From assembly GCA_949474265.1 (NCBI GenBank), contig CASXBC010000001.1:20216-84215 (forward strand): a DNA stretch of 64,000 nt, written 5' to 3'. The notes under the pieces are model-generated. The model was not told the origin of the DNA. It ran no database searches and saw only the letters and a program-made list of their open reading frames with translations. Source of the DNA: an uncultured bacterium. Its GTDB lineage: Bacteria; Bacillota; Clostridia; Christensenellales; UBA1242. The translations under genes were made by a program, and so were the position numbers. This document shows, in pieces, positions 1-58,240 of this stretch; positions within the stretch are counted from its first letter, which is position 1, and every line of letters starts with the position of its first letter.

Positions 1-3000
1 AGTTTAAGTTTTGTTGAGTTTACATCATAAAATCTGTTTTGTCCAGAAACTTTCATATAAACATTTACAGTGATTGTGCTACCTTGTATGTCAAAGTTTT
101 TATCAGTAAAGATATTTCCTTCTTCATCTATAAACGCACCACCGGCACCGCCTTCAACATCCTTATTGATTTCATAAGTAAACTTATATGCGTTTTCAGC
201 ATCTAAAGTCTTTGTTGCATCATTGTTTAATTTGAGTTTCTTTCCCCAAACCGTTCTTGGAATAACATAATAGAAGTCATCCGCTGATTTTTCTGCTTTG
301 AAATAGTTGTCAACCTTAAATTCAATGTTTCCACTCGTGTCAACACTGTCAGAAGTTAAGCTTGAATATTGAGTTCCAACTCTAAAGGTTTTAGACATTC
401 TATAATACATATTAGTATTGTTGAGTACAGAGCTGTTTATGTTGGTTTGTGTACCTTTATACAAGAAGTAAAGAGTTCTAGCTGTTGTGCTTTCAAGTCC
501 TGAAATCTCGCTATAGTCATTTATATTCAAAACAATCTCAGTCCCTGTGTATGCCGCAATGGTCTTATTTGCATAAACATCAGATACAACTCTTTCATAA
601 TATGTGCTCAACTCTTCATTTTTTGGAGTTGTTACAACAGTGTAAACTTTGTTTTCATCTACTAGATAATAGTTCTTCCCTGCAACTACTTTGCTGTCAG
701 ATGTCAATTTATATGACATTTCAAAATATGTCTTTTGAACAAAATACTTTGTTCCCTCAACAGGTTTTTCGACTGCTTTGTAATTGTAATTTTCATAGGT
801 ATAGAAAGTTTTACCTGAGTACTTTTCAGCGTTTTCTTTGTTGTATGTCACATAGTGATAGAATGGATTGGCTGCACTGCCATTATTAACTTGCTCATAG
901 TAAGACCTCATCTCACTTGCAATTGGAGCAGTAACAAGATTGTATACTCCATTTTCAAGCATATAATATTTCTTTCCAGAAATTGGCAATGTTTCATTAT
1001 CTGCAATCTTTCTATAGAAAGCAGAGCCTCGAATTGCGTTGTAAGTGCCTTCAGTAGTATCGCTCTTTAAGTAATATATTTTGTTGTTGACAATCAAAAC
1101 ATCTGTTGACTCTTGATATTTTTGAAGTTTTGAACTAGCTGCTGTCAAAACTTGCAAAGCCTTGCCATTATAAACAAAATCAATATCATCTTTTGTTGTT
1201 GTCTTTTCAAGAACAGTAAGCACAAAATCATTATTCGACCTAATTGTATTGCTTGGATATGGCTCTCTGCTGTTGAAATTGTGAGTCATCTTTTTGTATT
1301 TGTCAATAGTTGCAGAAATTGAAATGTATTCTGTTGTTCTATATTGACCTCTGTTTGACAAAGTCTCACATGCACTTGCTTCAGGAACTTCCTTAAAGGC
1401 ATTCAAGCTGTCAGAAATTGCAAATGTAACAGATTCGCCTGGGTCAAGCACAACTTCAAGCGTGTCGTTTAACAAAGTCTTCTTATCTGTTGGTCCACCA
1501 ACAACTGTGTTGTCTTTGACAACTTCATTAAATGTTGCAGCATTTTCAAGTCTGCTAATAGTAACAAACTTGCTTACAGTGGTTTTGTTTTCACCCTCAA
1601 CAAGATAAATCTTCATTTCAACATTTGCAAGTTTGTCGCTGTTGTTGAAATATATTGAGTCAATAACAGGCACCATAAAGTCTGCATCATTTGCATAAGG
1701 AGTTCCGTCTATAGGTGTTGCAGCTTCAGTTGCTGCAGCTTTTTCGTAATAACCTTCTTTCGCTACAAAATCACTTCCCGCAAAAGTTTTGAATTTTCCT
1801 GTATTTATATCAAAAGTATAGTAAGTTTTTGAAGAGTCAAATGTATGGTCAGTATCAACTGAAATAAAGTTTTTTGAATCCTTAATATAATACCCATTAG
1901 TCTTAACAAAAGCTGCACCTTCATACACTTTATATTGTCTTAAATTTGTGTCATAAGTGTAATATGTTTTGCTTTCAACTTTTGAATCGTCAGAAGTCTG
2001 AACATACTCTGCCGAAGCTTTTGCTGTTTGCACTCTTTCATAATATGTATGGTCTTTTTCAAAAGCTTCACCTTTAAAGATAACATAACTGCCATCTTTT
2101 TCTTCATAGTAAGTCTTTCCTGGATATTTAACAGTATCATTAGTTACTTTATAGCTATCTTCATAAACTTTTCCATTGTAGAACTTGTATTCTCCATTTG
2201 TCACAAGAGAGATGTTTCCCTCTTTATTAGTTTGAGCCCCTCTTACTGAGGTTCCAATAACTTTTCCATTGAGAAGATACTCTATCTTGTTTACCTTGAT
2301 GTCGTTTACTCTTGATTTATACTTTTCGGCAACATCCAAATTCAATCCCTTGATAGAATCTTCTCCCATAGCAGGAAACGCATAAGAAGAAATTCCTCTA
2401 AGAGTTACAAGAGCCTTCTTACTCTTATTGTTGTTATCTTCCGATGATTGTGACGAAATTGTTGGTGTTCTTGCTTCACCTTCTGCGGTGTAAACTTGTT
2501 CAATCACTAAATCATTTTCACCAACACCAGCCTTGGCATATTTCAAGTTTGTAAATGTTGTGAAGTTGTCTCCATTAGTAAACAAACCATAAATTGCAAT
2601 TCTTGAACCTTTTAAGTTCTCTTGTACATTATCCTCTGACTGATGGTCATCACTGAAGTAATTATTTTCATTGAAATTAACATCTGCTAGAATTGGATTT
2701 CCATACATTTCATCTTTTTCACCTGTCTCAACTTTAATTACAGGTTCACTGTCATCAGCAAACTTCCATTTTCCACTTGATTGCCAAATGTTGACACTTC
2801 CACTGCTAATTGACCCTATCTTTTTAATAACTGTGCCATAAGGCGTATCAGTTTCAGCAGACAGATATAATTTTGTCACACTTCCAGGGATGTTTAAAAT
2901 AGTGTCAGCCCAACCTTTTCCAGAGTTGTTGTTGTCTTCTCGGACATAATTGATTGTGCCAAGAAGTTGATACCATTGTTGGTCTGAGCCTTCATCTACT

Positions 3001-6000
3001 GCTATTTTGGCTGGAGCAACAGGCAAGTATTTCGCTCCAACAACGACTGCTTGTCCTTCTTGAACTATGTCTGTAGCTTCACCGTCAATAGTCAAAGAAT
3101 CAACAACCGGTTTTTCTGTTGCAGATAATGTGAAATAGAATCTAATCCTAAATCCATATTCATTTACACCATCAATGTAGAATTGCCTGTCTCCAAGCAT
3201 AAGTTCTTTAAGACTTACTTTAAATTCATCAAGCTTTTTATCAAGTTTTATTTCTTCTGGTATAGCAGGCTCATCATCTAAGTATAAAACGCTATCCAAG
3301 AAACTGTTGTATTTTGAGTCTCTGTCGCCTGAGTATTCATAAGTATACTCGAAAGTATTTGCATTGTTTAATGTGTTGTTTTTGTACATCTTTGCTTGAA
3401 TAGCTGACAAATTAAAGTTGTCAACCAATGAGCCCTCTTTGTTGTCTTTCTTCCAAAGATAGAACACATTTGCTTCATAGCCTTTTGAGTTGTCATCATT
3501 TTGAATTGAATAGGCAGATTCTTTATTGCTTGCGTATGACTGTCCACCAACAACCTCATTTGCACTTGTTGTGCTTGCAGTGCTGTTGTGTCTTGTCAAG
3601 AATGTTATGCTTGAGTTTGGCATAACTTTGAAAAGCAAGTTGTGAGCTATCACAATAGCCTCTGAATTTTCTCCAAAGTTTACTGTATAAGTTATTCTCA
3701 TCATGACGTGATTTCCGTCATTGTTTGCTCCTCTCGCACGAATTGAGAAGTCGACTTTTTTGCCTCCCTCAACTATATCTGAATAAGTGAGATAGTTTAA
3801 GTCAATTGAGCCAGATTCTACAATACCTTGTCTGTCAATTTCGTCAACACAGTTGAAGCCTGTGTTAAGTCCATTTGCACGAGGAGTAAGTCCTGTTTTG
3901 AAAATAACATCTTTTGTTGAGTCATAGTTTTGTGGAGCTTTTTTCAGGTCACTATGAATTTCATAAGCAGCTCTTGTTAAAGAATCATTTGGAGCTTGTG
4001 TGATTGCAAGACCAGGAAGTCCATAAATCTTCAAGTCAACATTTCCGCCAGAATCCTTGAAATTGTCTGTGTTTGCGGCACCAGAATTGCTATACTTGTG
4101 ACCTGTTCTTGCATTGTAAATACCAAAGTCAACTCCGTCCAAGAGTGAAAGTTCTTCTCCTGCATTGATTGTCTTTGCAGTGGGAGTTGTAGAGCTGTCT
4201 GAACTTTCAGAAACCCCAAACTCTGCCTTGAGATAAACAGCATATTGTGAGTTTGTGAAGATTGTTTGTCCATTTTCTCCGCCAACTTGAACAGCAATCT
4301 CATAGCGTTTTTCTTTCAAATAGTCAGAAGTGCTTAAAACAGTGTTTTCAATTTTTTTATAGCCATAAATTGTCTTTTGCAATAAGTCTTGCAAACAATC
4401 ATCCCAAGTTGAGCCAGAAAGCTTAATAGCATTTGAAAGTCCGCTTGCATCTGAGAATTTACCTTCCTGATAGTTGTCAATGCTTGCTCTGTAAACATAC
4501 CAAGGTGTCGCTACGTTGTTAACGCTCAAATAGATTGTCTGAACCACATCATCAACAATGCCACCACTATAATTGCTCTCGCAAACTTTTGCAGCATTCT
4601 TATCATTGCTCAAGAGTATTACTCCTGAATAAAGACTTTCAGGCTTGCTTGAATTAAATCCTCTGATTCCACTGAAATATCCAGCATAAGCATCACCTGA
4701 ATATGCTTTGATATATCTTACCCCATTTAACACTGCAAGTGTATCCTTAGCTTTGAGTGCTTTTGCTTGAGACTGAATGTATGAGTTTAATATCGTATCA
4801 GCAATATATCCGTCCTGAGTCTTATTCCATCCAATATTTGTGCCAAGTTTGATATAGTTTTCTTCGCTAAGTTTTATTGCTCTGTCGTCATAATACTTAA
4901 CAACAATTCTGCTTGTTAGGTTTGGAGCAGTAGTATAGATTTCTTCATCTGAAATAACATCATCTGTATTTCCCGCCTGAGCTCCTTCAAGACTTCTGTA
5001 AGTTGCAAAATACTTAAAGGTCTTAAAGCTCTTTCCAAGGTCAATATTGATGATTACCCCTCTATCATTCACAGTTATTGGAACAATTTTGTTTTCTGCT
5101 GTGTTTGCAGTGTTTGCCAATCTAACATAATAGGTCTCGCCAAGTAAAGCTGAGCCTTTAAAGTTGTAATTGAGCAATCTGTTCTCTGCAAAAATTTCCT
5201 GCTCTTCACTCTTTGCCAAATCTTCAGCATAGATTTCTTCTCTGTTTTGATTGTAATTTGGAGTGTTTGTAGAAACCTTAATTATTGGAGCATTAACCAC
5301 TTTCACAGTGTACAAAGCAGACACTTTGTTTACTGTAATTTTAAAGGTAACACTTTCAACTTTGCCAACATCCAAAAGAGTAAACTTAAGGTTAATCTCT
5401 CCGGTTAATGAGTTTGTAAGAATTGTTCTTGCTTTTTCGTCTGAAGTACTGTCAACATCTCCTGTCACTGTTTTGCCATTATCTACTTTCGAATAACTTA
5501 CTTTAAGATTGCTTGTAATGTCTGAAACAGAAACTGTCCATTTGTTTTGCACTCCACCTTCCTCACTGTTAGGTATATAAGGAACATAAGTATCCCCATC
5601 CTTCTTTGCAGTATAAACATTAACTCTGTTTTGAGCCTTTCCATCCTTATCTTTTGATGCAAAAGTTGCAGGAGTGTTGAAGAAGTTTTTGAAGTCAGTT
5701 GAAACATAACTTCCATCTAAATCAGCCTTAGTAGTTGCTGAAATGTATTCTTCTGATGAAGTATTTTCTTTTGCTTCATCTGGGTTTGGATAATTTGTAT
5801 TTATGATTACATTCTTTGCAATTTGGTATCTGTAAGATACTTGGAATCTTGAAATTTCTTTTCCTTTAAACATTCCAACAAGTGTGAGTGTTTTATAAAC
5901 ACTGTTCATCTCTTCTTCAACATCATCAGGAGTTATCTTCAACTCTGGATTGTTGTCTTGAAGAGAAGCCTTATCAACCAAGCTATAGCCATCACCTTTT

Positions 6001-9000
6001 CCAAATTTGTAAGTTGTATTTTCTGTTGCAATAAGTGAAACCTTTGATGGTTTTGCATCTTCGGAATAAATTTTTGGAGTTACTACTGAACCAACCTCAC
6101 CATCACCATTTATAATAATGACACTAAAAGGTCTTTGTCCATATCTCCACTCAGTATCTTGAACTTGTCTGCCAACATTTTCATCAAAATTCTTTGTGGC
6201 AACAAACTCAAGCTCAAATGAATAAAGTGACACATCTGACAGATTGTCTTTTGAAGCAGATTTGATAGTTACATCAAATTTAAGATTTACATCTTTTACA
6301 AGAGGAGCTATCTCCAATTTAATGTCGTCAAGATTGAGCTTGTCTTCCTCATCTGGAGTAAGCATCCCAGAGAGAACAATCATATCAGAAACTTTCAAGT
6401 TTACACGCTCATAATAATTTACACCAGCAGTAAATCCTTCATCTTCGCTAAACTCTGCAATTTGATATTTGCCGTCTTTCAGAACATAATAAGTTTTATT
6501 TATAAATCTGCGTTCATCATCTGTAAGAGGATAATATTCTCTGTAGAAATCATTGCCATTGGTAAGGCTCATGCCAACATCAAGTATTTTTCTGTTTTCA
6601 TCTTTTGTAGAAAGCTCAGTAATCAAGTTTTTAAAGGTGTAATGCTTTCCACTTGCAAGAGTTTTTTCTCCCAAAGTCCATTCAAAGTAACTTTCTGCTT
6701 TCAAGTTGATTTTAAACACGATGCCTTCGCTTGTGTAAATACCAAGTTCAAATGTGCTGTCTTTTGAAATGTTGTCTTTTGGGTTCAAAATAATTGTTTC
6801 ATAAGGATTATTTTTATATTTTTCATAATATTGAGTGTTTTCCTCAAAGTCAACCCCATCCTCAAACACAGCTTCAACATATTCTCCGTTTTCAATTACG
6901 TAATATGTTTTTGTTGAAACCCTGTTCTTGTCTGAAGTTGTGAAATATTCTTGAAGTCCCTTTTCCAGATATTCAACAATCAAGTCCTCAAGTTTTACTC
7001 CAATTTCTGCAGAGTAAACAGACTCTCCAACACTGATATTTTTGCTAAACCAGAGTTTTCCATCTTCAATCTTGTAGGTTTGATTTGGATTTTCTGATGG
7101 ATTTGCAAAGTAAACAACCAAATTTGTTTTTGTTTTTTCATCAACAATTGACGTTTCAATATTTGCATAAATCCAATCTGTTTCTTCAATAAGCACTTCA
7201 TTGCTGTCCAAAATGAGTGACTTGAGTTCTTCTGTGATAGGCATCTTAACAGTCACTTCAGTACCTTCTGCAATCCAAACCTTTTTAAATTTGAGAGCAT
7301 CAATAAGGTCAAGAGGATTGCCTTTGATATAAGAACCATAAGTTTCTCTATCACCTGTCACCTCTCCATCTTTCTCACGAACTGATGGGATAAAGATTTG
7401 CTCTTTGCTTCCAGCAATTATTGTTGCGTCATAGCTTGGAACATTATCTGCTCCAACTTTATTTTCATCTTTCACTTCACCACGATAAAGCGAAGTATCA
7501 TAAGTCTTTGCTTGGTTGAGCTTGAAAGTGTATTCCATTTCTGAGCCAACAACCTCAACATCATCAACACACCAATACTTTTGAATCACGATTGTTACTG
7601 CTGAATTTTTGTCGCTTTCAGACCTATAAGCAATAGATATATTTCTTCCATCAAATGAAACACTAACAGCATTTGAAGAAGCAGATTTCAATCTGTAGTT
7701 TTCTGTTATAACACCCTCTGGCAAAGTTGTCCAAAGGATTTTGTCAAATCTAGAGCCAGCAACTCTTCCGCTGTTTGAATTGTTGAATTTTTCATCCAAA
7801 TCAATTGTGTATGTCAAAGTTTCAGCATTGTAATAATGAGAATTAATATCCAAATACTCACCATAATTTTCGCTTGAACTTTCATTGTAAGGATAATTTA
7901 CATTTCCGATTTCAAAGTTTGAAACCACTTTAATTCTGTAATACCAGCTATAAGAATTTGAACTTACTGTTCCGGAAACCTTCATAGTGAATTTCAAAAG
8001 TATATAGCCTTCAAGTCCAGCTTCCATACTGTTGATATGGAGCATTCTGTCTGCGTCAGTGTATCTAGCAAGGTTGTTTAAATAGCCGTACGCATCAGAA
8101 ACAATTTCAACAGAAAACTCTCTTCTTGCTCCGGTCTCTTCAAGAAGTACTGAGTCATAGTAGAAACCTGCTTGAGGTGCATTTTTTTCAAAATAGCTTG
8201 CAAGGTATTCGGCACTTGGAGATTCTACAACAACGAAAGATGATTTTCCTTGTATGTAATAAGTTTTTGTAGGGTCAATTTCTGTGTCAGTAGTACGAGT
8301 GTATTCAGTTCCAATGTCATGCAAAATCTTATATGACTTGCCAGCAACCATTGTCTCATAAACACCCTCATTTTCAAGGTCGTTTGGATTTGCTGAAATC
8401 AATTTATCAAAGTCAACAAGACTGTTTCCATTTTCATCAGCAAAGATATTAAATTCGCCATTCTTGTTTGTGTAATAAACAAATTCGTTTCCTGTATTTG
8501 TTACTGTCACTCCAAGCACGAGATTTATTTCAAGTTTTGTAGTTCCGTCACTTACATCTGTTGAAACACTTATCTTATTGTCATGGTCAACAAATTCCAA
8601 ATTGTTTTTAGTAACAAGTTGATTTTGACTGTTTTTATCAATATATCTTCCTTCAACCGCTTTGATATTAAAGCCGTCAGCAATAGAGTATTGTCTGTCT
8701 TTGAGTATAAGAAGTCTAGTTTGTCCTTGATATTGAACAACTGATGCCTCTGGGAATACTTGCGTGATAAGTTCGTCTATGCTTGATTGATTGTAGCAAA
8801 CTGAGAATGCAATGGTTATTCTGTCTTTAGAACTGTATTTAACCACTTCCCTTGCATTGTCTTTGTCAACTTTTATCTTGACCGCATCCAATGCAGAATC
8901 AGTTGCATCATTTAATGAAAATGCTTGAATATAAGAATTCATAACATCTATATTTTTTCTGTCAACAAAAGCAAACTTTCCGCCACCATCAGCATCACTT

Positions 9001-12000
9001 CCGCTCTTAATTGTCAAAAATCCGTCATTATCCTTTCTCACATAAATGAGATTTTTTGCAGACAAGTAAGTTGTGCCTCCATCAAGAGAAACAGCTTCCT
9101 TCGTTCCGCCACCAGCAAGCTCTCTTATGTAAGAAGTCGCTTTCCAAACTGAATAATAGTTTGCAACATTTTCACTTGCCACTTGCGTCAAATCCAAAAT
9201 TGGATTTTCATCAAGTGAATTTACTTTTTCTTCAATAATAATATTTGGGTTTACATAAAGCTCAACTTCAGTATAGAAGGCATATTCAGACCTTACCCCA
9301 TAGTAGATTTTTATTGTAATTGATGTGTATTGTCTTACTGCAGCAATGTCAAGTCTAATTTCATCTGCAGAAACAACATTCAAGCTTGCAATCCCTTGCT
9401 TTTCAAAGAAAATACCACTTTCTTTTGAACCAAGGTCAAGCCCCTTTCCAACCAAAGCTTTTGCCCAAGAATATTTGCTTGAGTTGAAAACGAGATATTC
9501 ATCCAAATTGTAAGACTCATCTGCAAAAACGCTTACAGATTCATTTGGAGCATCCGTCAAATATTCTGAGTATTTTGTTTCATAATTTTCAAATGACCTG
9601 TTTACTTCAATGTCAGAAGTTAAATACAAATTGAGTGTAACGCTGTACAAATTGTTTGTACTGTTGATTCTGAAAGTAAGCTTTGTCTCTTTCAATGGAT
9701 TGATTGGAGCATTGAGCTTAAGCTTTGTAATAGGCACATTTGCATATTCAGTAATATTTTTTTGTTCGTTTACATTGCCTGCCTCATCATTGATTTGGAA
9801 CATCTTTTTCAGTTCAACGCCAAGAACTCCACTTTGGAAATCTTGAAGCCAAGTGCCATCAAAAACAATTTGATAGTCTGTGTTTGCATTACTGTTTCCT
9901 GTTGTGTAAATTCTAAACAAGTTGCTAAGTATGATTTCGTCATCTTCTGAGACATGTTTTGTGACAACAATTTTCGACTCATTTTTTGGAGCATCTTCAA
10001 ATCTGCTGTCATCCTCTGTATTTGTGACGTCTGTAGTTTTGTCATACTTGACATAGTCCAAACCTTCTGAGCTAACTTCAAATGTAAGCATTTCTGATTG
10101 CATTTCAACATTTGACAAAGTGTTGTCTGGATTTACTGCCATAACTTTTTCGTTGCCATTTTTTCTGTCAACGACATAAACTTTCAAATTTGTGCTTACA
10201 ACTTTTCCATTGGTAGAGTTGAAGTCTTTTATTTTGGCAGGGATACCCAAAGAGCCTGCCACCTCTTCATCAAACACCAAAACATTGTTTGAGTCTCTTC
10301 TTTCTTCATTAAATTGAACGCTGTATACGCCGTCAGTTGCTTTTATCTCTTGTCCAAATTGGTCAACAATTGTGTAAGTCAAAAGGCTGTTGAGGGCATC
10401 AATTGTCGCTTGATAGTTTTCTGCTGTCAAAGGCATTTGTCCCCAATCTATTTGAAGTCCATTTGCTCCAGAAGAAATTTGAACAACAATTGGATTTTCA
10501 GCTGAGTAATTTCCTGTTTCAGAATATTTTACTTTAAGTTCTTTTGGTTGTTGGAAATAAACATAGAAATAATCTACCACACCGTCATCAATTGGGTCAT
10601 TCATCCCAACAAGTTTTTCTCTTTCTTCTTTTCCATCATCATAAGTGAGCTTAAATGAAATTGCTTTTCCTTGGTCTACTGCGTTTTTCCCTGCAGTAAA
10701 GAAATCTTCATTGATGATAATGGTTCCTTCAAAAACTGCCATGTTGGCTGTTCTTTGGTCGACCAATTCTGCAAAACTTCCAAGTGACAAATATTGCTCT
10801 TGATAAGCATTGCCATCTCTGTCACAACAAATGACATTGAGAGTTTTTCCATACGCAGCCATAACTTTTTCAACATCTTTTGCAATGTCTTCGCTTGTAA
10901 GTTTGAGTGTGAATGTAATCATGTCTTTTGTTGAGCCGTCTTCGTTTTTGTTGATTGCTGGCAAATAGTATTGATTGTTATATTTTGCAGGCTCTCCGTT
11001 TTTGAATGAGAATGTTGGAGTCATATTTGAAATTGAAAGCGTGCTGTCAACATTTACTACTTTCGCTCCGCTAAAGCATACAAGTTGATATTTTGAAGGG
11101 TCTGTTGAGTCAGGAATGAGATTGCCGTTTACATCAGTTCTTACAAGGGCAGCAATGACAACCACTGAACCAGAATAACTTTTGTTTACTACAAGTCTGT
11201 TTCCAAACAACTCATAAAGTGTGTAGTTTTCTCTTGGAGTAACACCTGAAATATTGATGTTTTGTCCCCTGTAGTCCTTTGAGTAAACCACTCCTTCTTT
11301 GCAATTAAACACATCTTTGATGTCAACTGAGCCATCTCTTGTGTTGTCATAGAGAAAATATGCCACTCTTGTGTAAATGCTGTTTCCTATGTCTGCAGAA
11401 AGTTCAAGTTCTGCAGGGATAGGCTTGCCATTATCGTCATAGTTGATTACAAGGTCAAGACTGTCAGCTGTAAGTGAAACCGAGTTGTTTCCATCTTTTA
11501 CCAAAACATTTATTGACTCTTCTTGACCATTTTCAAAGAATCTTCTCCAAAGTCCTGTTTCATCCTTATGGAAGAAGTTGATTTCAAGTTTAAAAGTGTC
11601 CATAACAGAGCTTGAAGCAAAACTCCAATAGTAGTTGTTGTAGTCAATGTCTGCACCTGTTCTTGGCAAGATATAATATTCAACCCCCTCTGCCGCTTTA
11701 CTATAGTCAAAGTCTGGGTCAAAAGTTTCTTCTTCAACGACAACATTTCCTTCTTTTGTTGTCACCTTCATAACTCTTCCGCCAAGGATAGAGAAATCAG
11801 CTTTTCCTTTAGGAACTTTGATTCCCACTCTTCCAAGCAAAACCTGTGCAGGTTTTTTGCCACTATCAAAGATTGAAATCCCCAAACTCATGTCATTTGG
11901 TCTGTCTGTTGAATTTGTTGAAAGAGTAAAGTACTTATCTACAAAAACTTCAGCAAGCTCTTTGCTTGGCTCTACAATCACATCAGCAACTTCAATATCC

Positions 12001-12914
12001 AAAACCTTGATGTTTACACTTTGAGAAACAACCATTGCTGCATTTGCTTCATTTTGCAAGAATGCCACAATTTCGTCAGTTGTTGCATTTGGATTCTGGT
12101 CAAAGAAAAGTTTTTCAAAATAAGAATTTGAGAAAGCATAAGCATTGACAATAGAATACTTGTTCCCGCTGACTTCATCAGCATAGAAAGTGTAACTTCC
12201 ATCTTCATTTTCGTTGTAAGTAATATAATTTACTCCGTCGCTTCCCAAAACTTGATAAAACACTTTTTTGCTTGTGTTTTTATTATTAAACAAATACTTG
12301 CTGTTTTCTGGAGTAAACAAAGTGTCAATGTTGAAGGTTGAGCCAACAACGACATTTTGCATTTCATTTGCTTTTGCAATCGCTCCTGAGCCTACAGCTA
12401 AATTAATTTCTGACACAGGTGTGTCAACTGCGATAATTGCATTTCTGGTTGGCAATAAAATATTTTGAGATTTTGCAGTTATGTAAGAATATCCATCCAC
12501 ACTTCCGACAATTGAGCCATTTCTTCTAACAAGTTCGACCTTGAAAGGTTTGTTGAGTTCGACCTCGTTTGGAATAGTAATAACACCGTCTGTGATTTTG
12601 CCATTTCTTGTCACTCCGTTTTTAAGGCTTAAAGAAACTTTTGTTTCTGTCACTCCTTCAGTTGTGCAAGAGATTGTAAGTTCGCTGTCATCTGCCAAGA
12701 AAAACCAATTGTCTCCGTCAATATTTTCAGCAAAACCCTGACCATCAACCGTACGCATAAATGCCATATCTTCTGGGTCATTAATCTTATCATCAAGTCT
12801 TCCTGTCAAAAACAAAACTAAAGCTGTCGCACCGGCAACGCCAATAAGTGATGCAACAACTATCATAATCACTTTCCAAAGAGCAAGAGGGGCCCTTTTC
12901 TTAAAACCTTTCAT
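1..12914 (-). CDS. Giant (>=4,304 aa, 3' end beyond window) membrane-anchored, predicted extracytoplasmic protein of unknown function
   Basis: Minus-strand ATG at 12914 with GAGGA 7 nt upstream. The frame (codon first bases = 2 mod 3) is open wherever I translated it and is still open in the same frame at position 3. No track ORF lies in this frame; the gene is missing from the track because it has no stop in the window. N-terminus MKGFKKRAPLALWKVIMIVVASLIGVAGATALVLFLTG is a signal anchor. Confidence 0.85.
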   Translation of the reverse strand, partial: MKGFKKRAPLALWKVIMIVVASLIGVAGATALVLFLTGRLDDKINDPEDMAFMRTVDGQGFAENIDGDNWFFLADDSELTISCTTEGVTETKVSLSLKNGVTRNGKITDGVITIPNEVELNKPFKVELVRRNGSIVGSVDGYSYITAKSQNILLPTRNAIIAVDTPVSEINLAVGSGAIAKANEMQNVVVGSTFNIDTLFTPENSKYLFNNKNTSKKVFYQVLGSDGVNYITYNENEDGSYTFYADEVSGNKYSIVNAYAFSNSYFEKLFFDQNPNATTDEIVAFLQNEANAAMVVSQSVNIKVLDIEVADVIVEPSKELAEVFVDKYFTLSTNSTDRPNDMSLGISIFDSGKKPAQVLLGRVGIKVPKGKADFSILGGRVMKVTTKEGNVVVEEETFDPDFDYSKAAEGVEYYILPRTGADIDYNNYYWSFASSSVMDTFKLEINFFHKDETGLWRRFFENGQEESINVLVKDGNNSVSLTADSLDLVINYDDNGKPIPAELELSADIGNSIYTRVAYFLYDNTRDGSVDIKDVFNCKEGVVYSKDYRGQNINISGVTPRENYTLYELFGNRLVVNKSYSGSVVVIAALVRTDVNGNLIPDSTDPSKYQLVCFSGAKVVNVDSTLSISNMTPTFSFKNGEPAKYNNQYYLPAINKNEDGSTKDMITFTLKLTSEDIAKDVEKVMAAYGKTLNVICCDRDGNAYQEQYLSLGSFAELVDQRTANMAVFEGTIIINEDFFTAGKNAVDQGKAISFKLTYDDGKEEREKLVGMNDPIDDGVVDYFYVYFQQPKELKVKYSETGNYSAENPIVVQISSGANGLQIDWGQMPLTAENYQATIDALNSLLTYTIVDQFGQEIKATDGVYSVQFNEERRDSNNVLVFDEEVAGSLGIPAKIKDFNSTNGKVVSTNLKVYVVDRKNGNEKVMAVNPDNTLSNVEMQSEMLTFEVSSEGLDYVKYDKTTDVTNTEDDSRFEDAPKNESKIVVTKHVSEDDEIILSNLFRIYTTGNSNANTDYQIVFDGTWLQDFQSGVLGVELKKMFQINDEAGNVNEQKNITEYANVPITKLKLNAPINPLKETKLTFRINSTNNLYSVTLNLYLTSDIEVNRSFENYETKYSEYLTDAPNESVSVFADESYNLDEYLVFNSSKYSWAKALVGKGLDLGSKESGIFFEKQGIASLNVVSADEIRLDIAAVRQYTSITIKIYYGVRSEYAFYTEVELYVNPNIIIEEKVNSLDENPILDLTQVASENVANYYSVWKATSYIRELAGGGTKEAVSLDGGTTYLSAKNLIYVRKDNDGFLTIKSGSDADGGGKFAFVDRKNIDVMNSYIQAFSLNDATDSALDAVKIKVDKDNAREVVKYSSKDRITIAFSVCYNQSSIDELITQVFPEASVVQYQGQTRLLILKDRQYSIADGFNIKAVEGRYIDKNSQNQLVTKNNLEFVDHDNKISVSTDVSDGTTKLEINLVLGVTVTNTGNEFVYYTNKNGEFNIFADENGNSLVDFDKLISANPNDLENEGVYETMVAGKSYKILHDIGTEYTRTTDTEIDPTKTYYIQGKSSFVVVESPSAEYLASYFEKNAPQAGFYYDSVLLEETGARREFSVEIVSDAYGYLNNLARYTDADRMLHINSMEAGLEGYILLKFTMKVSGTVSSNSYSWYYRIKVVSNFEIGNVNYPYNESSSENYGEYLDINSHYYNAETLTYTIDLDEKFNNSNSGRVAGSRFDKILWTTLPEGVITENYRLKSASSNAVSVSFDGRNISIAYRSESDKNSAVTIVIQKYWCVDDVEVVGSEMEYTFKLNQAKTYDTSLYRGEVKDENKVGADNVPSYDATIIAGSKEQIFIPSVREKDGEVTGDRETYGSYIKGNPLDLIDALKFKKVWIAEGTEVTVKMPITEELKSLILDSNEVLIEETDWIYANIETSIVDEKTKTNLVVYFANPSENPNQTYKIEDGKLWFSKNISVGESVYSAEIGVKLEDLIVEYLEKGLQEYFTTSDKNRVSTKTYYVIENGEYVEAVFEDGVDFEENTQYYEKYKNNPYETIILNPKDNISKDSTFELGIYTSEGIVFKINLKAESYFEWTLGEKTLASGKHYTFKNLITELSTKDENRKILDVGMSLTNGNDFYREYYPLTDDERRFINKTYYVLKDGKYQIAEFSEDEGFTAGVNYYERVNLKVSDMIVLSGMLTPDEEDKLNLDDIKLEIAPLVKDVNLKFDVTIKSASKDNLSDVSLYSFELEFVATKNFDENVGRQVQDTEWRYGQRPFSVIIINGDGEVGSVVTPKIYSEDAKPSKVSLIATENTTYKFGKGDGYSLVDKASLQDNNPELKITPDDVEEEMNSVYKTLTLVGMFKGKEISRFQVSYRYQIAKNVIINTNYPNPDEAKENTSSEEYISATTKADLDGSYVSTDFKNFFNTPATFASKDKDGKAQNRVNVYTAKKDGDTYVPYIPNSEEGGVQNKWTVSVSDITSNLKVSYSKVDNGKTVTGDVDSTSDEKARTILTNSLTGEINLKFTLLDVGKVESVTFKITVNKVSALYTVKVVNAPIIKVSTNTPNYNQNREEIYAEDLAKSEEQEIFAENRLLNYNFKGSALLGETYYVRLANTANTAENKIVPITVNDRGVIINIDLGKSFKTFKYFATYRSLEGAQAGNTDDVISDEEIYTTAPNLTSRIVVKYYDDRAIKLSEENYIKLGTNIGWNKTQDGYIADTILNSYIQSQAKALKAKDTLAVLNGVRYIKAYSGDAYAGYFSGIRGFNSSKPESLYSGVILLSNDKNAAKVCESNYSGGIVDDVVQTIYLSVNNVATPWYVYRASIDNYQEGKFSDASGLSNAIKLSGSTWDDCLQDLLQKTIYGYKKIENTVLSTSDYLKEKRYEIAVQVGGENGQTIFTNSQYAVYLKAEFGVSESSDSSTTPTAKTINAGEELSLLDGVDFGIYNARTGHKYSNSGAANTDNFKDSGGNVDLKIYGLPGLAITQAPNDSLTRAAYEIHSDLKKAPQNYDSTKDVIFKTGLTPRANGLNTGFNCVDEIDRQGIVESGSIDLNYLTYSDIVEGGKKVDFSIRARGANNDGNHVMMRITYTVNFGENSEAIVIAHNLLFKVMPNSSITFLTRHNSTASTTSANEVVGGQSYASNKESAYSIQNDDNSKGYEANVFYLWKKDNKEGSLVDNFNLSAIQAKMYKNNTLNNANTFEYTYEYSGDRDSKYNSFLDSVLYLDDEPAIPEEIKLDKKLDEFKVSLKELMLGDRQFYIDGVNEYGFRIRFYFTLSATEKPVVDSLTIDGEATDIVQEGQAVVVGAKYLPVAPAKIAVDEGSDQQWYQLLGTINYVREDNNNSGKGWADTILNIPGSVTKLYLSAETDTPYGTVIKKIGSISSGSVNIWQSSGKWKFADDSEPVIKVETGEKDEMYGNPILADVNFNENNYFSDDHQSEDNVQENLKGSRIAIYGLFTNGDNFTTFTNLKYAKAGVGENDLVIEQVYTAEGEARTPTISSQSSEDNNNKSKKALVTLRGISSYAFPAMGEDSIKGLNLDVAEKYKSRVNDIKVNKIEYLLNGKVIGTSVRGAQTNKEGNISLVTNGEYKFYNGKVYEDSYKVTNDTVKYPGKTYYEEKDGSYVIFKGEAFEKDHTYYERVQTAKASAEYVQTSDDSKVESKTYYTYDTNLRQYKVYEGAAFVKTNGYYIKDSKNFISVDTDHTFDSSKTYYTFDINTGKFKTFAGSDFVAKEGYYEKAAATEAATPIDGTPYANDADFMVPVIDSIYFNNSDKLANVEMKIYLVEGENKTTVSKFVTISRLENAATFNEVVKDNTVVGGPTDKKTLLNDTLEVVLDPGESVTFAISDSLNAFKEVPEASACETLSNRGQYRTTEYISISATIDKYKKMTHNFNSREPYPSNTIRSNNDFVLTVLEKTTTKDDIDFVYNGKALQVLTAASSKLQKYQESTDVLIVNNKIYYLKSDTTEGTYNAIRGSAFYRKIADNETLPISGKKYYMLENGVYNLVTAPIASEMRSYYEQVNNGSAANPFYHYVTYNKENAEKYSGKTFYTYENYNYKAVEKPVEGTKYFVQKTYFEMSYKLTSDSKVVAGKNYYLVDENKVYTVVTTPKNEELSTYYERVVSDVYANKTIAAYTGTEIVLNINDYSEISGLESTTARTLYFLYKGTQTNINSSVLNNTNMYYRMSKTFRVGTQYSSLTSDSVDTSGNIEFKVDNYFKAEKSADDFYYVIPRTVWGKKLKLNNDATKTLDAENAYKFTYEINKDVEGGAGGAFIDEEGNIFTDKNFDIQGSTITVNVYMKVSGQNRFYDVNSTKLK

Positions 12915-13012
12915 ATCAAAATCCTCAATTTTTATTCGCCAAATTTCAAGTAAATCACAATTTCGCTTGAAGCTATCAATCAAAATTATTGTTTACATAT
13001 TTCGACAAATTA

Positions 13013-13041
13013 ATTATACATTTTTGACCTATTTTTCGCAA
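13013..13041 (-). promoter_or_regulatory. Sigma-A-type promoter for the giant gene (TTGCGA-17 nt-TATAAT with TG extension)
   Basis: Minus strand reads cTTGCGAaaaataggtcaaaaaTGTATAATtaa. -35 = 13041-13036, -10 = 13018-13013. Confidence 0.5.
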
Positions 13042-13117
13042 GTATTTAACAAAGTTTTTTATTTTAAATAAATTATATATAAATTAAGGCAAAAATCCGC
13101 CAAAAGCAATCTTTAAG

Positions 13118-13146
13118 TTGACATCAAAAAAAATATAGTTTATAAT
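13118..13146 (+). promoter_or_regulatory. Consensus sigma-A promoter TTGACA-17 nt-TATAAT
   Basis: TTGACA at 13118-13123, 17-nt spacer, TATAAT at 13141-13146. The ATG at 13153 lies 7 nt after the -10 with no Shine-Dalgarno sequence. Confidence 0.55.
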
Positions 13147-13152: not shown

Positions 13153-13899
13153 ATGAACACAAATTTTGGTATTTACAATTATTTAAACCTTATCAACCGC
13201 CGTGTTGCAAAGGCCTTTCGAAGCACAGGAAGAAATCCTCTACCTGCGGATTTTAAAATCACGACAGAAAGCATAAAAGAAAGGCTCTATCTCAATCAAA
13301 TGCAAGCTGACTTATCTTATCCAGAGTTTCTTTTTGAGGACAATCGTGATGTCAAAAAAAGATTTAAAGCCTCTGTTAAGCAAATCAAACAACTTCAAGC
13401 AATGCTCAAAGATGAAAACTTTACAAAAACAATGTCAAAAGAGTTTTTATCAAAGTTTTCAACTTACTTGAAGCTTCGTCTCTTTGTCACAAATTCAATT
13501 TTAAAAGAGTTTAAAAGATATTTCTTCAATGAAATTGATGCGTATGAAGAAATTTGTGCAATAAACACAATTTTCTTTGAACTTTTGGATGGCACTTTTG
13601 AGCCAGACTTTGATGTGAGATTTTATCTTGATGGTCTTGAAGAAAAGTATAAAATTTTCTATCAAGAAAGAGTAAGCCGTCTTGAAGAAAAGGTTTCTGA
13701 GAAAACCAAAAAGAAAAGAGCTGCAACAGAAAAATTACATCAGCAAGAAATAGATTTAAACGCTAAGGTGCTTAAGGCTGAAGCTAAAATAATTAAATCT
13801 GGGTTAAAAACCGAGAAAAAGGCTGAAAAAATTAAAAGCTCAAAAGAAGTTTTTAAGTTTAAACAAGCAAAAGATAAAAAAGAAAATGTAAAAAATTAA
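13153..13899 (+). CDS. Hypothetical protein with Lys/Glu-rich C-terminal tail
   Basis: 248-aa ORF in the track, with a consensus promoter directly upstream. I recognise no family. Confidence 0.65.
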   Translation: MNTNFGIYNYLNLINRRVAKAFRSTGRNPLPADFKITTESIKERLYLNQMQADLSYPEFLFEDNRDVKKRFKASVKQIKQLQAMLKDENFTKTMSKEFLSKFSTYLKLRLFVTNSILKEFKRYFFNEIDAYEEICAINTIFFELLDGTFEPDFDVRFYLDGLEEKYKIFYQERVSRLEEKVSEKTKKKRAATEKLHQQEIDLNAKVLKAEAKIIKSGLKTEKKAEKIKSSKEVFKFKQAKDKKENVKN

Positions 13900-16051: not shown

Positions 16052-17443
16052 ATGGAACAAAAAGATTTAACAATGGACAAAATCCTCAATCTCTGCAAAA
16101 GCCGTGGTTTTGTTTTTCCTGGAAGTGAGATTTATGGAGGATTGGCAAACAGCTGGGATTATGGTCCAATCGGAAGCGAACTTAAGAAAAACATTAAAGA
16201 ACTTTGGTGGAAGAGATTTGTTCATGAAAATGAATACAATGTCGGCATTGATGCAGCAATCATTATGAACCCAAGAGTTTGGCAAGCAAGTGGACACCTC
16301 TCTGGTTTTTCTGACCCTCTTATTGATTGCAAAAACTGTAAGACTAGACACCGTGCAGATAAATTGATTGAAGATTATGTTGCTCAAAACAACATCTCTC
16401 TCAATGTTGGAGAACTCAACAACTCTGCTATGGAAAAATACATTGCAGACAACAAAATTAAATGTCCAAACTGTTCAAAGAGTGACTTTACCCCTCTGAG
16501 AAACTTCAACCTTATGTTTAAAACCTTTATGGGAGTTACGGAAGATTCAAAAAATGAAGTGTACTTAAGACCAGAAACAGCACAAGCAATGTTTGTGGAT
16601 TACAAAAATGTTGTTCGTACTCAAAGACCAAAGATGCCTTTTGGTATCGCTCAAATGGGAAGAAGTTTCAGAAATGAAATCACCCCAGGAAACTTTATCT
16701 TCCGCACTCGTGAGTTTGAACAAATGGAACTTGAGTTTTTCTGCAAGCCTGGCACTGACCTTGAATGGTTTAAATATTATAAAGAACAGATGAGAAATTG
16801 GCTTTATGATTTGGGAATTAAAAAAGAGAATCTTAGAGAAAGAGACCACTCAGCTGAAGAACTTTGCTTCTACAGCAAAGCAACTTGCGACTTTGAATTT
16901 TTGTTTCCATTTGGATGGGGCGAACTTTGGGGAATTGCTGACAGAACAGATTATGACCTCGCACAACATCAAACTTTTAGCGGAGAAAACATGGAGTATA
17001 TAGACCCAATCACAAACGAAAAATATATTCCTTATGTCGTTGAACCTGCTCTTGGAGTTGACAGAATGTTTTTGACTGTGCTTTGCAATGCTTATGATGA
17101 AGAAGTTGTTGGAGAAAATGACACAAGAGTTGTGTTGCACCTGCTTCCTGCTCTCGCACCTTACAAAGTTGCTGTGCTTCCTCTTTCAAAGAAATTATCT
17201 GATAAGGCACGTGAAGTTTACAGAAAACTTACAAAAGATTTCTGTTGCGATTATGACGAATCTGGCTCAATTGGAAAAAGATACCGTCGTGAAGATGAAA
17301 TAGGAACTCCTTTCTGCGTAACAGTTGATTTTGATACGCTTGAAGATGACACAGTGACAATACGTGACCGTGACACAATGCAACAAATCCGACTTCCAAT
17401 AGCAGAGCTTTCTGATTATATCAGCAAAGCAATCAAGTTTTAA
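16052..17443 (+). CDS. glyQS: Glycine--tRNA ligase, single-chain (alpha2) type
   Basis: 463 aa; N-terminus ...[27 protein letters not shown] is typical of GlyQS; RBS AAGGAG; T-box leader upstream. Confidence 0.95.
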
Positions 17444-17470
17444 TTTTTAGAAATATTTTATAAAAGAAAA

Positions 17471-17536
17471 AGAAGAGGTACTTGCCTCTTCTTTTTTAAT
17501 AAAAAACAACTCTTAAAAAAGGAGAGTTGTTTTTTG
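17471..17536. terminator. Two hairpin terminators between the convergent glyQS and small membrane-protein gene
   Basis: AGAAGAGG-tacttg-CCTCTTCT plus T-run (17471-17497). AACAACTCT-taaaaaagg-AGAGTTGTT flanked by A- and T-runs (17505-17536). Confidence 0.7.
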
Positions 17537-17546
17537 ATTTGAACTA

Positions 17547-17765
17547 TTAGATGTTCAAAAGTCTAAAGATGTGTTTTTGAGTAATCATGAATACAAGGTC
17601 CAAAATCCAGATAAGCCATCCGCCGAAAATTCTGATGATTCCAGCTACAACTTTTCCTTCTTGGAATCTTGTAACTACTCCAAGAATCCATGCTGTGAAT
17701 GGGATGATTGCAAGAATCAAGCTAACAATCCAATCCAACCCAAAGTAATCTTTCTTTGCTGCCAT
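17547..17765 (-). CDS. Small two-helix membrane protein (72 aa)
   Basis: The track ORF has two hydrophobic spans (IVSLILAIIPFTAWILGVV and GGWLIWILDLVFMI). Family not recognised. Confidence 0.55.
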   Translation of the reverse strand: MAAKKDYFGLDWIVSLILAIIPFTAWILGVVTRFQEGKVVAGIIRIFGGWLIWILDLVFMITQKHIFRLLNI

Positions 17766-17909
17766 AACACTTTCTCTCCTTTTTTAAAATTTGTAATTTT
17801 GTTACATTCTCATTTTAGACTATTGATAGAGAATTGTCAACAATTTCCAATCAATAAAATGTATGATTTTTGTTTCTGTTTCATTCATATTTTTAGCATA
17901 ATTATTTCT

Positions 17910-18638
17910 TTATCTAAACATGCTGTCTTTGCTTGTAAGAAAAGTCCAGCTAAGCAGGGTTTTGAAAAACACCGCCCAATAGGTGTACTTTGCACTATTT
18001 AAAAATTCTTCACAGGCTTTGCATTCTGGCTTTGACAAAATCTGTCCTAAAAACTTTAGTGCAAATTTGGAAGCTTCTTTCTCTATTTGGATTTCTCTAT
18101 ATTTAAGAAAAAGTGCAAAGATAAAAATCAAAATTCCTACACCCAAAAATCCAAGTCCAAGCACCAAGATATACATCTCTGGCAAGACATCCACCAAATA
18201 CAAAACGCTAAGCACAAGCCCAATTATCACAGCAGGCATAAAGAAAAGTCCAAAAATCCTGCCAATGTGTTTTCTTCTCCAATGCTTTCTAAGTTTGTCT
18301 CCTTGAGTGTCTTGAAGTGCATGTCCAAGCTCATGAGAAACTGTTGCAAGGGATGCTAAACTGTTTGAATACATTGTAGTCTGGCTTAAAGCCACAGTGC
18401 CAGCTCTGTAGTGGTCGTCATACTCAGCACATCTATCAATATTCAATTTGTTGTCAAACATGGCATTGTTTATTGCTTTTACATAATCGACAGTCCTAAT
18501 ACCTTGAGAATTTTGTACCTGTTGATACTGTTCAAGTTTTTCATAAAAGTTGTCGGATGCAAAACTTGCCACCGCCAAACAAAAGCAAAGCAAAACTCCA
18601 ACGACAACTATTGCCGCAATAATAATATAAGTTATCAT
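17910..18638 (-). CDS. Membrane zinc metallopeptidase, YugP-like (Zn_peptidase_2)
   Basis: HELGHALQ (HExxH) motif; N- and C-terminal transmembrane helices; 242 aa, typical of this family. Confidence 0.8.
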   Translation of the reverse strand: MITYIIIAAIVVVGVLLCFCLAVASFASDNFYEKLEQYQQVQNSQGIRTVDYVKAINNAMFDNKLNIDRCAEYDDHYRAGTVALSQTTMYSNSLASLATVSHELGHALQDTQGDKLRKHWRRKHIGRIFGLFFMPAVIIGLVLSVLYLVDVLPEMYILVLGLGFLGVGILIFIFALFLKYREIQIEKEASKFALKFLGQILSKPECKACEEFLNSAKYTYWAVFFKTLLSWTFLTSKDSMFR

Positions 18639-18735
18639 AATTTTATTATATCTATTTTAAAAAGTTAAATCAACCAATACTCAAGATTTTCTAATTACAA
18701 AACAATCAATAAGCATTCTTAAAAACAATTGTAGC

Positions 18736-20628: not shown

Positions 20629-20630
20629 GC

Positions 20631-21329: not shown

Positions 21330-21366
21330 ATATCTTACTTTCCTCCTTTGTAATTTATTCTTTTCT

Positions 21367-30845: not shown

Positions 30846-31086
30846 AAGAATTTTGTTGTTTCCTGTTTATCTTTTTAAGTGGCTTATTTCACCACTCATT
30901 CCTCATTGTTGCATCTTCACTCCAACCTGCTCAAATTATATGATTAAAGCAGTTGATGAATTTGGTTTTTTCAAGGGAGTTTTTCTTGGAACCAAAAGGC
31001 TTTTTAGATGTGTGCCTTGGCAAAAGAAAAGAGGCTATGACCCTGTGCCGATAAATATTAAAGGAGATAACTTATGGATTTTATAA
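30823..31086 (+). CDS. yidD: Membrane protein insertion efficiency factor YidD
   Basis: Conserved ISPLIPHCCIFTPTCSNYMIKAV...RCVPW motif. The start could be 30814 or 30823. Confidence 0.85.
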   Translation: MKAKKIIKRILLFPVYLFKWLISPLIPHCCIFTPTCSNYMIKAVDEFGFFKGVFLGTKRLFRCVPWQKKRGYDPVPINIKGDNLWIL

Positions 31087-57968: not shown

Positions 57969-58240
57969 TTTCTTCTCCTTAACAAAAAACAGCCACTCAT
58001 CCTAAGATTTTAGGACGAATGACTGTATCCGCGGTGCCACCTAAATTATTGCTTAAAGCAATCACTTTTGTTGTCTTCAATCAAAGACATCTGCTGTAAC
58101 GGGCAGGACCGGCTCTCCCTACTTTTTTCATTTCAGGATGCAACTCCGAAGTGTTATTCGCACAAGTATGAATATTGCTTTTCACCAACTGCAACTCTCT
58201 GAAAGACATGGTCTTGTGTTACTTCTCTTCATCATAGTTT
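57969..58240 (-). promoter_or_regulatory. T-box leader upstream of aspS-gatCAB; specifier position reads AAC (Asn)
   Basis: Minus strand carries K-turn UGAUGA, AGAGAG bulge and distal loop UUGGUGAAAAG. Specifier loop 3' side is CGAAU-AAC-A (AAC = 58155-58153). T-box AAUUUAGGUGGCACCGCG at 58047-58030. Terminator CATTCGTCCTAA/TTAGGATGAGTG plus U-run at 58022-57984. Confidence 0.8.

Follow-up and report, generated by a model that had tools for sequence, protein, structure and literature searches.

What occupies the left end of this stretch of DNA, where a list of open reading frames (ORFs) gives only short fragments? The stretch, hereafter the window, consists of 64,000 nucleotides (nt) of contig CASXBC010000001.1 from an uncultured bacterium of the Clostridia (lineage UBA1242; assembly GCA_949474265.1). 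A reading of the letters alone (hereafter the original prediction) had proposed that a single giant gene runs through the region on the minus strand and leaves the window at its left edge. We found that the giant gene is real, native and chromosomal, with a length of about 15 kilobases (kb). The two parts of its product that were modelled are, according to structure prediction, strings of immunoglobulin-like (Ig-like) beta-sandwich domains, and a membrane anchor is predicted at the N-terminus. We are inclined to regard the product as a surface fibril.

Translation of the reverse complement from the ATG at 12914 to the window edge (3-12914) gave 4,304 codons with zero stops, in line with the proposed single gene of at least 4,304 codons. 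The base composition of the window (34% GC) predicts stops at 7.3% of codons, and a stop-free run of 4,304 codons has a chance probability of about 1e-141 (log10 P = -141). No ORF of 150 amino acids (aa) or more is present in any other frame of 1-12914. The giant gene is absent from the ORF list because the lister drops ORFs that run off the source; the lister itself states this, as had been suspected. The product begins with MKGFKKRAPLALWKVIMIVVASLIGVAGATALVLFLTGRLDDK. V, N, S, K, T, E, D and Y each account for 6.6-8.3% of its residues, the 4,304-residue part contains 11 Cys residues (0.26%), and the isoelectric point is 4.7. The body had already been described as rich in Thr, Asn, Asp, Val, Tyr and Lys and nearly free of Cys, and this composition agrees.

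The complete product has 4,997 aa when counted from the equivalent of ATG 12914, or 5,020 aa from an alternative start upstream. These lengths are those of the gene calls on public contigs, at all 6 loci listed; the sequence of the 3' end itself was not retrieved. By the same gene calls the gene goes on for 693 codons past the window edge, and the 3' end is missing from the window as originally supposed. The C-terminal 600 aa, used as a query against GTDB genomes and JGI metagenomes, gave only two distant relatives (loci L001 and L002), and the clusters that were followed from the cardiolipin synthase gene (cls) of the closest relative belonged to other species and did not give the window's own 3' end.

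The same locus was found on at least 11 public contigs (NCBI metagenome-assembled genomes (MAGs), Logan, JGI and ENA) by means of the identical 248-aa protein encoded next to the giant gene. Among them are two NCBI MAGs, one JGI contig of 271 kb, and assemblies of ERR2136580 and ERR2136552 from Logan and ENA. Five of the loci (L003-L007) show no nucleotide difference from the window over the shared 9,762 nt (window 3153-12914), and 2 nt differ in a sixth. Since an identical gene is present in independently assembled public contigs, a chimeric assembly, the danger to which the original prediction had pointed, is excluded. The GC content of the giant gene (35.6%) and its GC content at third codon positions (0.285) are the same as those of neighbouring housekeeping genes. 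Horizontal acquisition was rejected because the composition of the gene equals that of its neighbours. A promoter-like site is located about 100 nt 5' of the start codon; an extended -10 promoter element was not supported by the promoter scan. It may be added that zero differences in a fast-evolving gene were seen in five assemblies from four sources (NCBI, Logan, JGI and ENA); one and the same strain seems to be present in several samples.

When aa 2301-3300 were compared exhaustively by HMMER with 1.84 billion representative proteins, 40 matches were obtained in total. The length of 34 of the 40 is 3,782-5,670 aa, and most of the others look like fragments without the N-terminus. The query region falls at colinear positions in the full-length members, and about 34 orthologs are colinear domain by domain at 25-55% identity. 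In the GTDB scan the MAG of L001 ('uncultured Clostridia bacterium') was found to carry a complete ORF of 4,094 aa, the product of which is colinear with the window protein at 23-32% identity and has the same N-terminus. The giants of two other species (4,739 and 4,897/4,902 aa) are 42-47% identical to the window protein. Ten family clusters were checked; each has 1-3 members and is nameless in every source. Judged by sequence similarity, the giant gene is no orphan; about 40 representative clusters make up the conserved family of which it is a member.

The full-length members share a K/R-rich start, an (L/A)(S/A)LWK motif and a single hydrophobic segment, and many of them share a C-terminal strand resembling YYVKVGxxYYLIxVTF. 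The window protein has the K/R-rich start, the LSLWK motif and the transmembrane (TM) anchor, homology that is colinear over most of its length, and the motifs GANNDGNHVMMR and NDTLE. In the full-length alignment a conserved core is interrupted by lineage-specific insertions, and the best-conserved zones are aa 1-700, about 2550-2600, about 3050-3100 and about 4250-4300. The most conserved motif of the family is represented in the window protein by RARGANNDGNHVMMRITY (aa 3055-3076, coordinates 3687-3752); other family-wide invariant motifs are NDTLEVVL (aa 3816-3823) and GAFIDEEGNIFT. The domains are all different in sequence, and each of them is nevertheless conserved, position by position, in the orthologs. 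In one species, two loci (L017 and L018) encode giants of 4,902 and 4,897 aa; over 3,322 aa no difference between them was seen apart from one indel of 5 aa. That species (L016-L018) is widely sampled, its cls being present in 194 blocks of the collection.

Is the product held in the membrane or released? A hydropathy scan, the same N-terminal architecture in 34 homologs and a helix placed at aa 12-36 by AlphaFold2 all agree with the basic stretch and single hydrophobic helix that had been read from the sequence at the outset. The segment at aa 7-40 is predicted to be an N-in signal-anchor TM helix, and this topology supports the earlier view that the bulk of the protein would lie outside the cell. 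The (L/A)LWK motif is kept across the family, and few 50-aa blocks of the giant protein are as well conserved as the N-terminal one. Because of the positive-inside rule and the strong conservation of this block, with W13 and G28 invariant, a retained anchor rather than a discarded leader is argued for. The alternative is a secreted giant, in which a Sec signal peptide would be cleaved after A27-G28-A29 and the chain would be released to the matrix or biofilm, or would rebind the cell non-covalently. An AXA-like motif does lie within the hydrophobic stretch, and searches of the family members revealed no further anchoring signal. The hydrophobic stretch, however, does not end at the putative cleavage site but continues to about aa 36-40, and its 25-30 or so residues are long for the h-region of a signal peptide. 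The N-terminal block, among the most conserved and with invariant residues, is also unlike typical leaders. We therefore regard release by cleavage as decidedly improbable. The helix contains a run of small residues, A21-S-L-I-G25-V-A-G28-A29 (aa 21-29; window 12834-12852, minus strand), with small-xxx-small spacing. From its sequence, this run may be a helix-helix packing interface for oligomerisation, or an AXA-like cleavage site.

At the other end of the chain, no C-terminal LPxTG motif (last 80 aa), C-terminal TM segment or basic tail was found in the 34 full-length homologs; the C-terminus of the window protein itself lies outside the window. Neither the giant protein nor twelve family members contain an SLH or CWB2 wall-anchoring domain by Pfam.

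The body of the protein could not be named by sequence. The 4,304 residues matched no Pfam family above threshold (the best, PKD_3, scored 9.8 bits against a cutoff of 26.3 bits), nothing above threshold in NCBIfam and no PHROGs family at E<=0.01. Nothing was found among PDB sequences at E<=1, either with the giant protein as a single query or with a family profile of 3,906 positions, and the twelve family members (about 48,000 residues) gave no Pfam match at E<=0.01. The curated thresholds of the Big, cadherin-like, FN3 and PKD families in Pfam and NCBIfam were not reached by the giant protein. The original prediction had seen no adhesin domain that it could name, and these searches of Pfam, NCBIfam and PDB sequences bear it out. 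The RTX motif GGxGxD is absent from the window protein and its five closest relatives, none of the 41 sequences has the CxEQ thioester motif, and a lipobox is likewise missing. A word index of 5.8 billion proteins, queried with aa 2313-3287 and with the last 250 aa of the window part, gave no match; the protein's own cluster seems unreachable there. In the literature nothing relevant was found on the giant family or on the sample accessions. A phage structural protein (tail fibre or Hoc-like) was rejected in view of the missing PHROGs match, the housekeeping neighbours and structural matches in BFVD to generic Ig, PKD and BACON arrays.

The fold was analyzed by AlphaFold2, run with 18 homologs on two tiles of 1,200 aa (2,400 residues, 48% of the protein). 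For aa 1-1200 the mean predicted local distance difference test score (pLDDT) was 80.8 and the predicted template modelling score (pTM) 0.40, and the model shows a helix followed by about 10-11 beta-sandwich domains. For aa 2201-3400 the mean pLDDT was 71.3 and the pTM 0.57; this tile is beta-rich, and an insertion at about 2700-2850 is of low confidence. In Foldseek searches of the PDB, both tiles matched multi-domain Ig-like arrays at 7-10% identity and a probability of about 1.0, with E values of 1e-15 to 1e-9 for aa 1-1200. Among the matches were the nuclear-pore component 9hcj_10, the hydin-type proteins of the ciliary central apparatus (7som, 9ijj, 7sqc), titin I65-I70 (3b43), protocadherins, DSCAM and contactins. 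For aa 1-1200 the best matches further included the S-layer proteins SbsB (4aq1), Sap (9g93) and EA1 (8opr), at E 1e-12 to 1e-10. The Ig-like domains of PrgB (8beg) appeared at rank 23 for the tile of aa 2201-3400, with 8% identity, and alpha-2-macroglobulins gave weak matches (probability 0.5-0.8). The matches in BFVD were phage proteins of a generic Ig, PKD or BACON kind. Among the Foldseek matches of the two modelled tiles there was no enzymatic, pore or beta-taco fold.

According to these models, both tiles are strings of Ig-like beta-sandwich domains. Extrapolation at about 105 aa per domain would give some 40-50 beta-sandwich domains for the whole protein, and, at full extension, a length of roughly 0.15-0.2 micrometres. 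The novelty that had been claimed for the protein is thus upheld in one respect, as no sequence match to adhesin or Ig families was found, and has to be given up in another, as the fold is not exotic and both modelled tiles are Ig-like.

Are these domains copies of one another? No tandem DNA repeats and no meaningful direct repeats were found in the giant gene, and when 43 overlapping tiles of 200 aa (861 pairs) were compared by hhalign, the conserved core showed no internal repeats. Only insertions resemble one another (aa 1983-2094 and 2117-2233, hhalign probability 96.5%). Cryptic domain repeats were rejected, since among the 861 tile pairs only insertion modules match each other. The statements that long exact tandem DNA repeats are absent and that the protein is not a simple repeat-expanded adhesin were therefore correct, the former by the repeat scans and the latter by the profile-profile comparison as well.

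The recurring motif (G/S)K-x-YY...YYE, which the original prediction had taken as a feature of the body, is real and has a more restricted place. An iterated hidden Markov model (HMM) defined a module of about 33 aa, K-T-Y-Y-x(3-5)-G-x-Y...YYE(K/R), with 10 copies in four clusters. The three peptides first quoted lie where they had been placed (aa 4077-4109 at 686-588, aa 3978 starting at 983 and aa 3598 starting at 2123). By the alignment occupancy profile, all 10 copies are inside low-occupancy, lineage-specific insertions. The window protein has 10 copies, its three nearest relatives have 6, 5 and 4, two others have 1 each, and none is present elsewhere. Because the copy number is 0 in other family members, the module, judged from these sequences, is a recent expansion specific to a subclade and not part of the body plan. 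No Pfam family exists for it. An identification with LPD18 (19 bits against a cutoff of 26.8 bits, in one segment) and one with choline-binding or cell-wall-binding repeats (Choline_bind_1, E=0.94) were both rejected, neither match recurring in 10 other module-bearing segments.

The rate of divergence is informative on where the protein may act. Between the window genome and its closest relative (P0001), the giant protein is 54% identical, whereas the ABC-F protein is 97%, glycyl-tRNA synthetase 95%, the 248-aa protein 77% and the Zn-peptidase 72% identical. The cls product of another species is 87% identical to that of P0001, and the giant of that species is 42% identical to that of the window. 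In the family alignment insertions and deletions are concentrated in the C-terminal half. These comparisons indicate that the giant gene diverges much faster than its neighbours while its length and order are kept. Fast sequence drift with a kept order is typical of exposed surface proteins.

On this evidence we consider it reasonably probable that the giant protein is a membrane-anchored surface fibril that acts as an adhesin or spacer. Owing to the positive-inside N-terminus the helix would stay in the membrane and act as a signal anchor, the other residues (about 4,950) would be exported through Sec, and the chain would extend through and beyond the Gram-positive wall. The conserved, membrane-proximal N-terminal third might form a stalk or wall-spanning base. 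The fast-diverging C-terminal half, rich in insertions and bearing the Tyr-rich KTYY...YYE modules, would be the exposed part that contacts ligands, particles, host surfaces or other cells. A rare, uncultured lineage of Clostridia would use the fibril for adhesion or as a spacer at the cell surface.

Several facts weigh against this interpretation. The models cover only 48% of the giant protein, and the Foldseek matches are generic, with TM-scores of 0.1-0.25 owing to differing domain orientations. No ligand-binding, lectin or enzymatic domain was identified. Within the hydrophobic segment, A-G-A (aa 27-29) could serve as a site for signal peptidase. The C-terminal 693 residues of the window's own protein and the gene downstream of it are outside the sequence seen. 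Finally, typical adhesins are repetitive, variable in copy number and often encoded by accessory genes, whereas the giant protein is non-repetitive, positionally conserved and encoded at a core chromosomal site, which fits a structural scaffold at least as well.

The surroundings of the gene in relatives bear on this last point. Eight species-level loci were compared (L001, L002, L009/L010, L011, L012, L013, L014/L015 and L016-L018). On the upstream side, where visible, a gene for an ABC-F ATPase and the gene of about 248 aa are present, the latter facing away from the giant gene. Downstream, cls (with two PLDc_2 domains) follows the giant gene in 7 of the 8 loci. In most of them it overlaps the stop of the giant gene or lies 20-30 nt away, and in L012 the distance is about 300 nt. 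In L013 a membrane protein of 310 aa takes the place of cls. From this arrangement the giant gene is probably co-transcribed with cls in relatives; the link to cls is known from relatives only, as the window's own downstream region lies beyond its edge.

The protein might then be an envelope scaffold or ruler and not an adhesin, forming a non-crystalline coat or a wall-associated scaffold in which each unique Ig-like domain has a defined position, on the pattern of hydin, titin or gp210, and its anchoring might be tied to cardiolipin-rich domains made by the co-transcribed cls. The non-repetitive core, the colinearity of the domains one by one in the orthologs, the single-copy gene in a conserved chromosomal neighbourhood near oriC and the tight coupling of cls downstream would all be expected of such a scaffold. 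The top structural matches, moreover, include the hydin-type ciliary scaffolds and the S-layer proteins SbsB, Sap and EA1, and, to judge from the pTM of 0.57, the domains of aa 2201-3400 seem to be packed together compactly to some extent. On the other hand, the protein carries no SLH, CWB2 or other wall-binding domain, and a scaffold with fixed partners would not usually diverge so rapidly or carry such large lineage-specific insertions. Shared ancestry alone may account for synteny within one narrow clade, and cls is missing at the L013 locus. A scaffold thus appears to us possible but on the whole unlikely. Rather more doubtful is its strictest form, a core envelope scaffold or 'molecular ruler' that would be a bacterial counterpart of hydin or titin, with about 45 unique Ig-like domains at fixed positions, anchored by the TM helix and dependent on cardiolipin for its assembly or localisation.

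The neighbouring cls raises another possibility, namely that the giant is a bridge-like lipid-transfer protein (AsmA/TamB/YhdP or VPS13-like) moving the cardiolipin made by the adjacent enzyme. An N-terminal TM anchor followed by a very long beta-rich body would suit this function, and cls lies immediately downstream in relatives. Both models, however, show discrete beta-sandwich domains and not a continuous beta-taco groove. No AsmA, TamB or VPS13 structure is among the best 50 Foldseek matches listed, and the giant protein and the twelve family members have no match to the Pfam domains AsmA, DUF490 or Chorein. In addition, the window has Firmicutes features (a T-box leader and a PASTA-domain penicillin-binding protein), and nothing in it suggests an outer membrane. 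Lipid transfer of this kind is hardly credible to us.

Further downstream, past cls and where the contigs reach, small conserved ORFs are followed by a gene for a VirD4/TraG-like coupling ATPase on the opposite strand. The small ORFs, which have no Pfam match, encode a multi-TM protein of about 170-226 aa and proteins of 181/182 aa and 153 aa. The coupling ATPase is an orphan of 661-667 aa (L009 23683-25683, L011 26317-28302, L013 22069-24069, L015 15334-17337, L016-L018 13539-15539). Could the giant be a mating or aggregation adhesin of a conjugation-type system with this ATPase, analogous to PrgB in enterococcal conjugation? A type IV secretion system coupling protein does lie 3-4 genes downstream in L009, L011, L013 and L015-L018, and the Ig-like domains of PrgB are among the Foldseek matches. 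No VirB4, relaxase, VirB6/VirB8-like or hydrolase gene, however, was seen in these relatives' loci, the coupling protein gene is on the opposite strand, and the match to PrgB, at 8% identity, is a generic Ig-like similarity. A housekeeping chromosomal neighbourhood kept across species also argues that the locus is not a mobile element. We consider a role in conjugation very improbable, and the surface fibril remains our preferred interpretation.

Two further features were observed in this part of the relatives' loci. In L014 an insertion bearing a phage integrase follows directly after cls (11678-13111 onwards) in one strain. In L017 Gp10_C-domain proteins and an RHS/YD-shell protein of 1,505 aa are encoded beyond the coupling ATPase (16093-21449). 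The region downstream of the giant gene-cls pair looks like an integration hot spot.

How does such a fibril compare with known systems? Adhesins of the SiiE, LapA/LapF, MpIBP and BapA type are giant, acidic and Cys-poor, and their strings of beta-sandwiches form long surface fibrils. They have near-identical tandem repeats that Pfam recognises (Big, cadherin-like), and they are exported in diderm bacteria by a type I secretion system with C-terminal RTX signals. The giant protein resembles them in its several thousand residues, its acidic and Cys-poor composition and its modelled Ig-like array fold, but it has no core repeats, Pfam match or RTX motif, and it has an N-terminal TM anchor and belongs to a Firmicutes-type genome. 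With PrgB and other sortase-anchored proteins of the MSCRAMM type it would share Ig-like stalk domains and a Gram-positive surface. Unlike them, it has no YSIRK signal, its family has no C-terminal LPxTG, TM segment or basic tail, and it is about 5-10 times larger and would be tethered by the N-terminus instead of the C-terminus. The Bacillus/Geobacillus S-layer proteins SbsB, Sap and EA1 are likewise chains of divergent, non-identical Ig-like domains at a Firmicutes surface. They are, however, 600-900 aa long, SLH-anchored and lattice-forming, whereas the giant protein has about 5,000 aa and a TM anchor and lacks SLH and CWB2.

The hydin-type proteins, titin and 9hcj_10 share with the giant protein a length of thousands of residues and unique Ig-like domains conserved by position, and they head the Foldseek matches of both tiles. 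They are eukaryotic and either intracellular or of the nuclear envelope, and at 7-10% identity the analogy is one of architecture only. Alpha-2-macroglobulins differ in that the giant protein lacks the CxEQ thioester and a lipobox and matches them weakly in structure. The giants that West-Roberts et al. (bioRxiv 10.1101/2023.11.21.568195) describe from Omnitrophota and other phyla are more than 30,000 aa long, with numerous TM regions and, in most cases, SecA DEAD helicase domains. They resemble the present family in being metagenomic, largely unannotated and recognisable in their domains only via structure prediction; the giant protein differs from them by its size of about 5,000 aa, its one TM segment and its possession of only beta-sandwich domains.

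The giant protein resembles giant Ig-domain surface proteins in the way it would work, but by its defining features it belongs to none of the named families considered. The sequence family is absent from the libraries searched, and its architecture is familiar at the fold level; the N-terminal tether, the unique domains and the core synteny are its unusual features. A gene of about 15 kb in a low-GC genome has a product that cannot be identified by Pfam, NCBIfam, PHROGs or PDB sequences, and structure prediction turns this sequence 'dark matter' into what would be a membrane-tethered chain of dozens of Ig-like domains. Such a protein would be a useful exception to the rule by which giant surface proteins of bacteria are built as arrays of repeats, and it is a candidate determinant of how an uncultured lineage of Clostridia attaches to or spaces itself from its surroundings. 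As the family is small and unannotated, the definition of a domain family would let fragmented MAG copies be recognised. The conserved pairing of the giant gene with cls is a tentative lead.

Table 1. Positions of the giant gene, its signals, its modelled parts and its modules, and of the adjacent divergent gene (window coordinates).
Feature	Position	Strand	Basis and remarks
Giant gene, codons 1-4304	3..12914	-	Open frame; last 693 codons and stop beyond left window edge
GAGGA, Shine-Dalgarno	12922..12926	-	7 nt 5' of ATG 12914; read from sequence
TTGCGA-17-TATAAT, sigma-70-type promoter-like site	13013..13041	-	10/12 consensus positions; consensus match only
Only hydrophobic segment, aa 7-40	12795..12896	-	Hydropathy scan; follows basic KGFKKR
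Aa 1-1200, predicted TM helix and about 10-11 Ig-like domains	9315..12914	-	AlphaFold2, Foldseek; best-conserved part of the family
Aa 2201-3400, more predicted beta-sandwich domains	2715..6314	-	AlphaFold2, Foldseek against PDB and BFVD; holds RARGANNDGNHVMMRITY
Modules 1-2, aa 1480-1496 and 1547-1578	8181..8477	-	Iterated HMM; low-occupancy insertion
Modules 3-4, aa 1999-2034 and 2137-2172	6399..6920	-	Within duplicated unit of about 110 aa
Modules 5-7, aa 3597-3727	1734..2126	-	Tandem, period about 48 aa; insertion in <10% of members
Modules 8-10, aa 3978-4110	585..983	-	Tandem, period about 50 aa; insertion in <10-25% of members
248-aa gene, divergent from giant gene	13153..13899	+	Soluble product; Lys-rich C-terminal tail

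The 248-aa gene adjoins the giant gene, always in divergent orientation, in every relative examined. Its orthologs encode proteins of 242-254 aa (L009 5025-5771, L011 5070-5816, L012 1512-2276, L013 4981-5709). The 248-aa protein has no Pfam or PHROGs match, and a profile of five sequences found nothing in the PDB. On the plus strand a perfect sigma-70 consensus, TTGACA-17-TATAAT (12/12), is present at 13118-13146, and its -10 element ends 6 nt before ATG 13153. As read from these letters, the transcript may start at or next to ATG 13153 and give a leaderless mRNA.

The window as a whole is an oriC region of the Firmicutes type, with dnaA, dnaN, recF, yidC, mnmE, mnmG, rsmG, parA, parB and rsmH; it further carries the gene for the PASTA-domain penicillin-binding protein, gatAB and a T-box leader 5' of aspS. 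This leader (58008-58244, minus strand, 139 bits) precedes the gene for aspartyl-tRNA synthetase (56208-57968, minus strand), with gatA and gatB downstream. Between recF and rsmH there is an ORF of 953 aa (22471-25332, minus strand). Its only Pfam signal is a sub-threshold match to CvpA/Colicin_V at aa 12-183 (26.7 bits against 29.3), the other residues (about 770) having no match. Finally, a YidC-like ORF of 500 aa (31074-32576, plus strand), in which the 60KD_IMP domain covers only aa 31-135, is unusually long for a YidC of Firmicutes.

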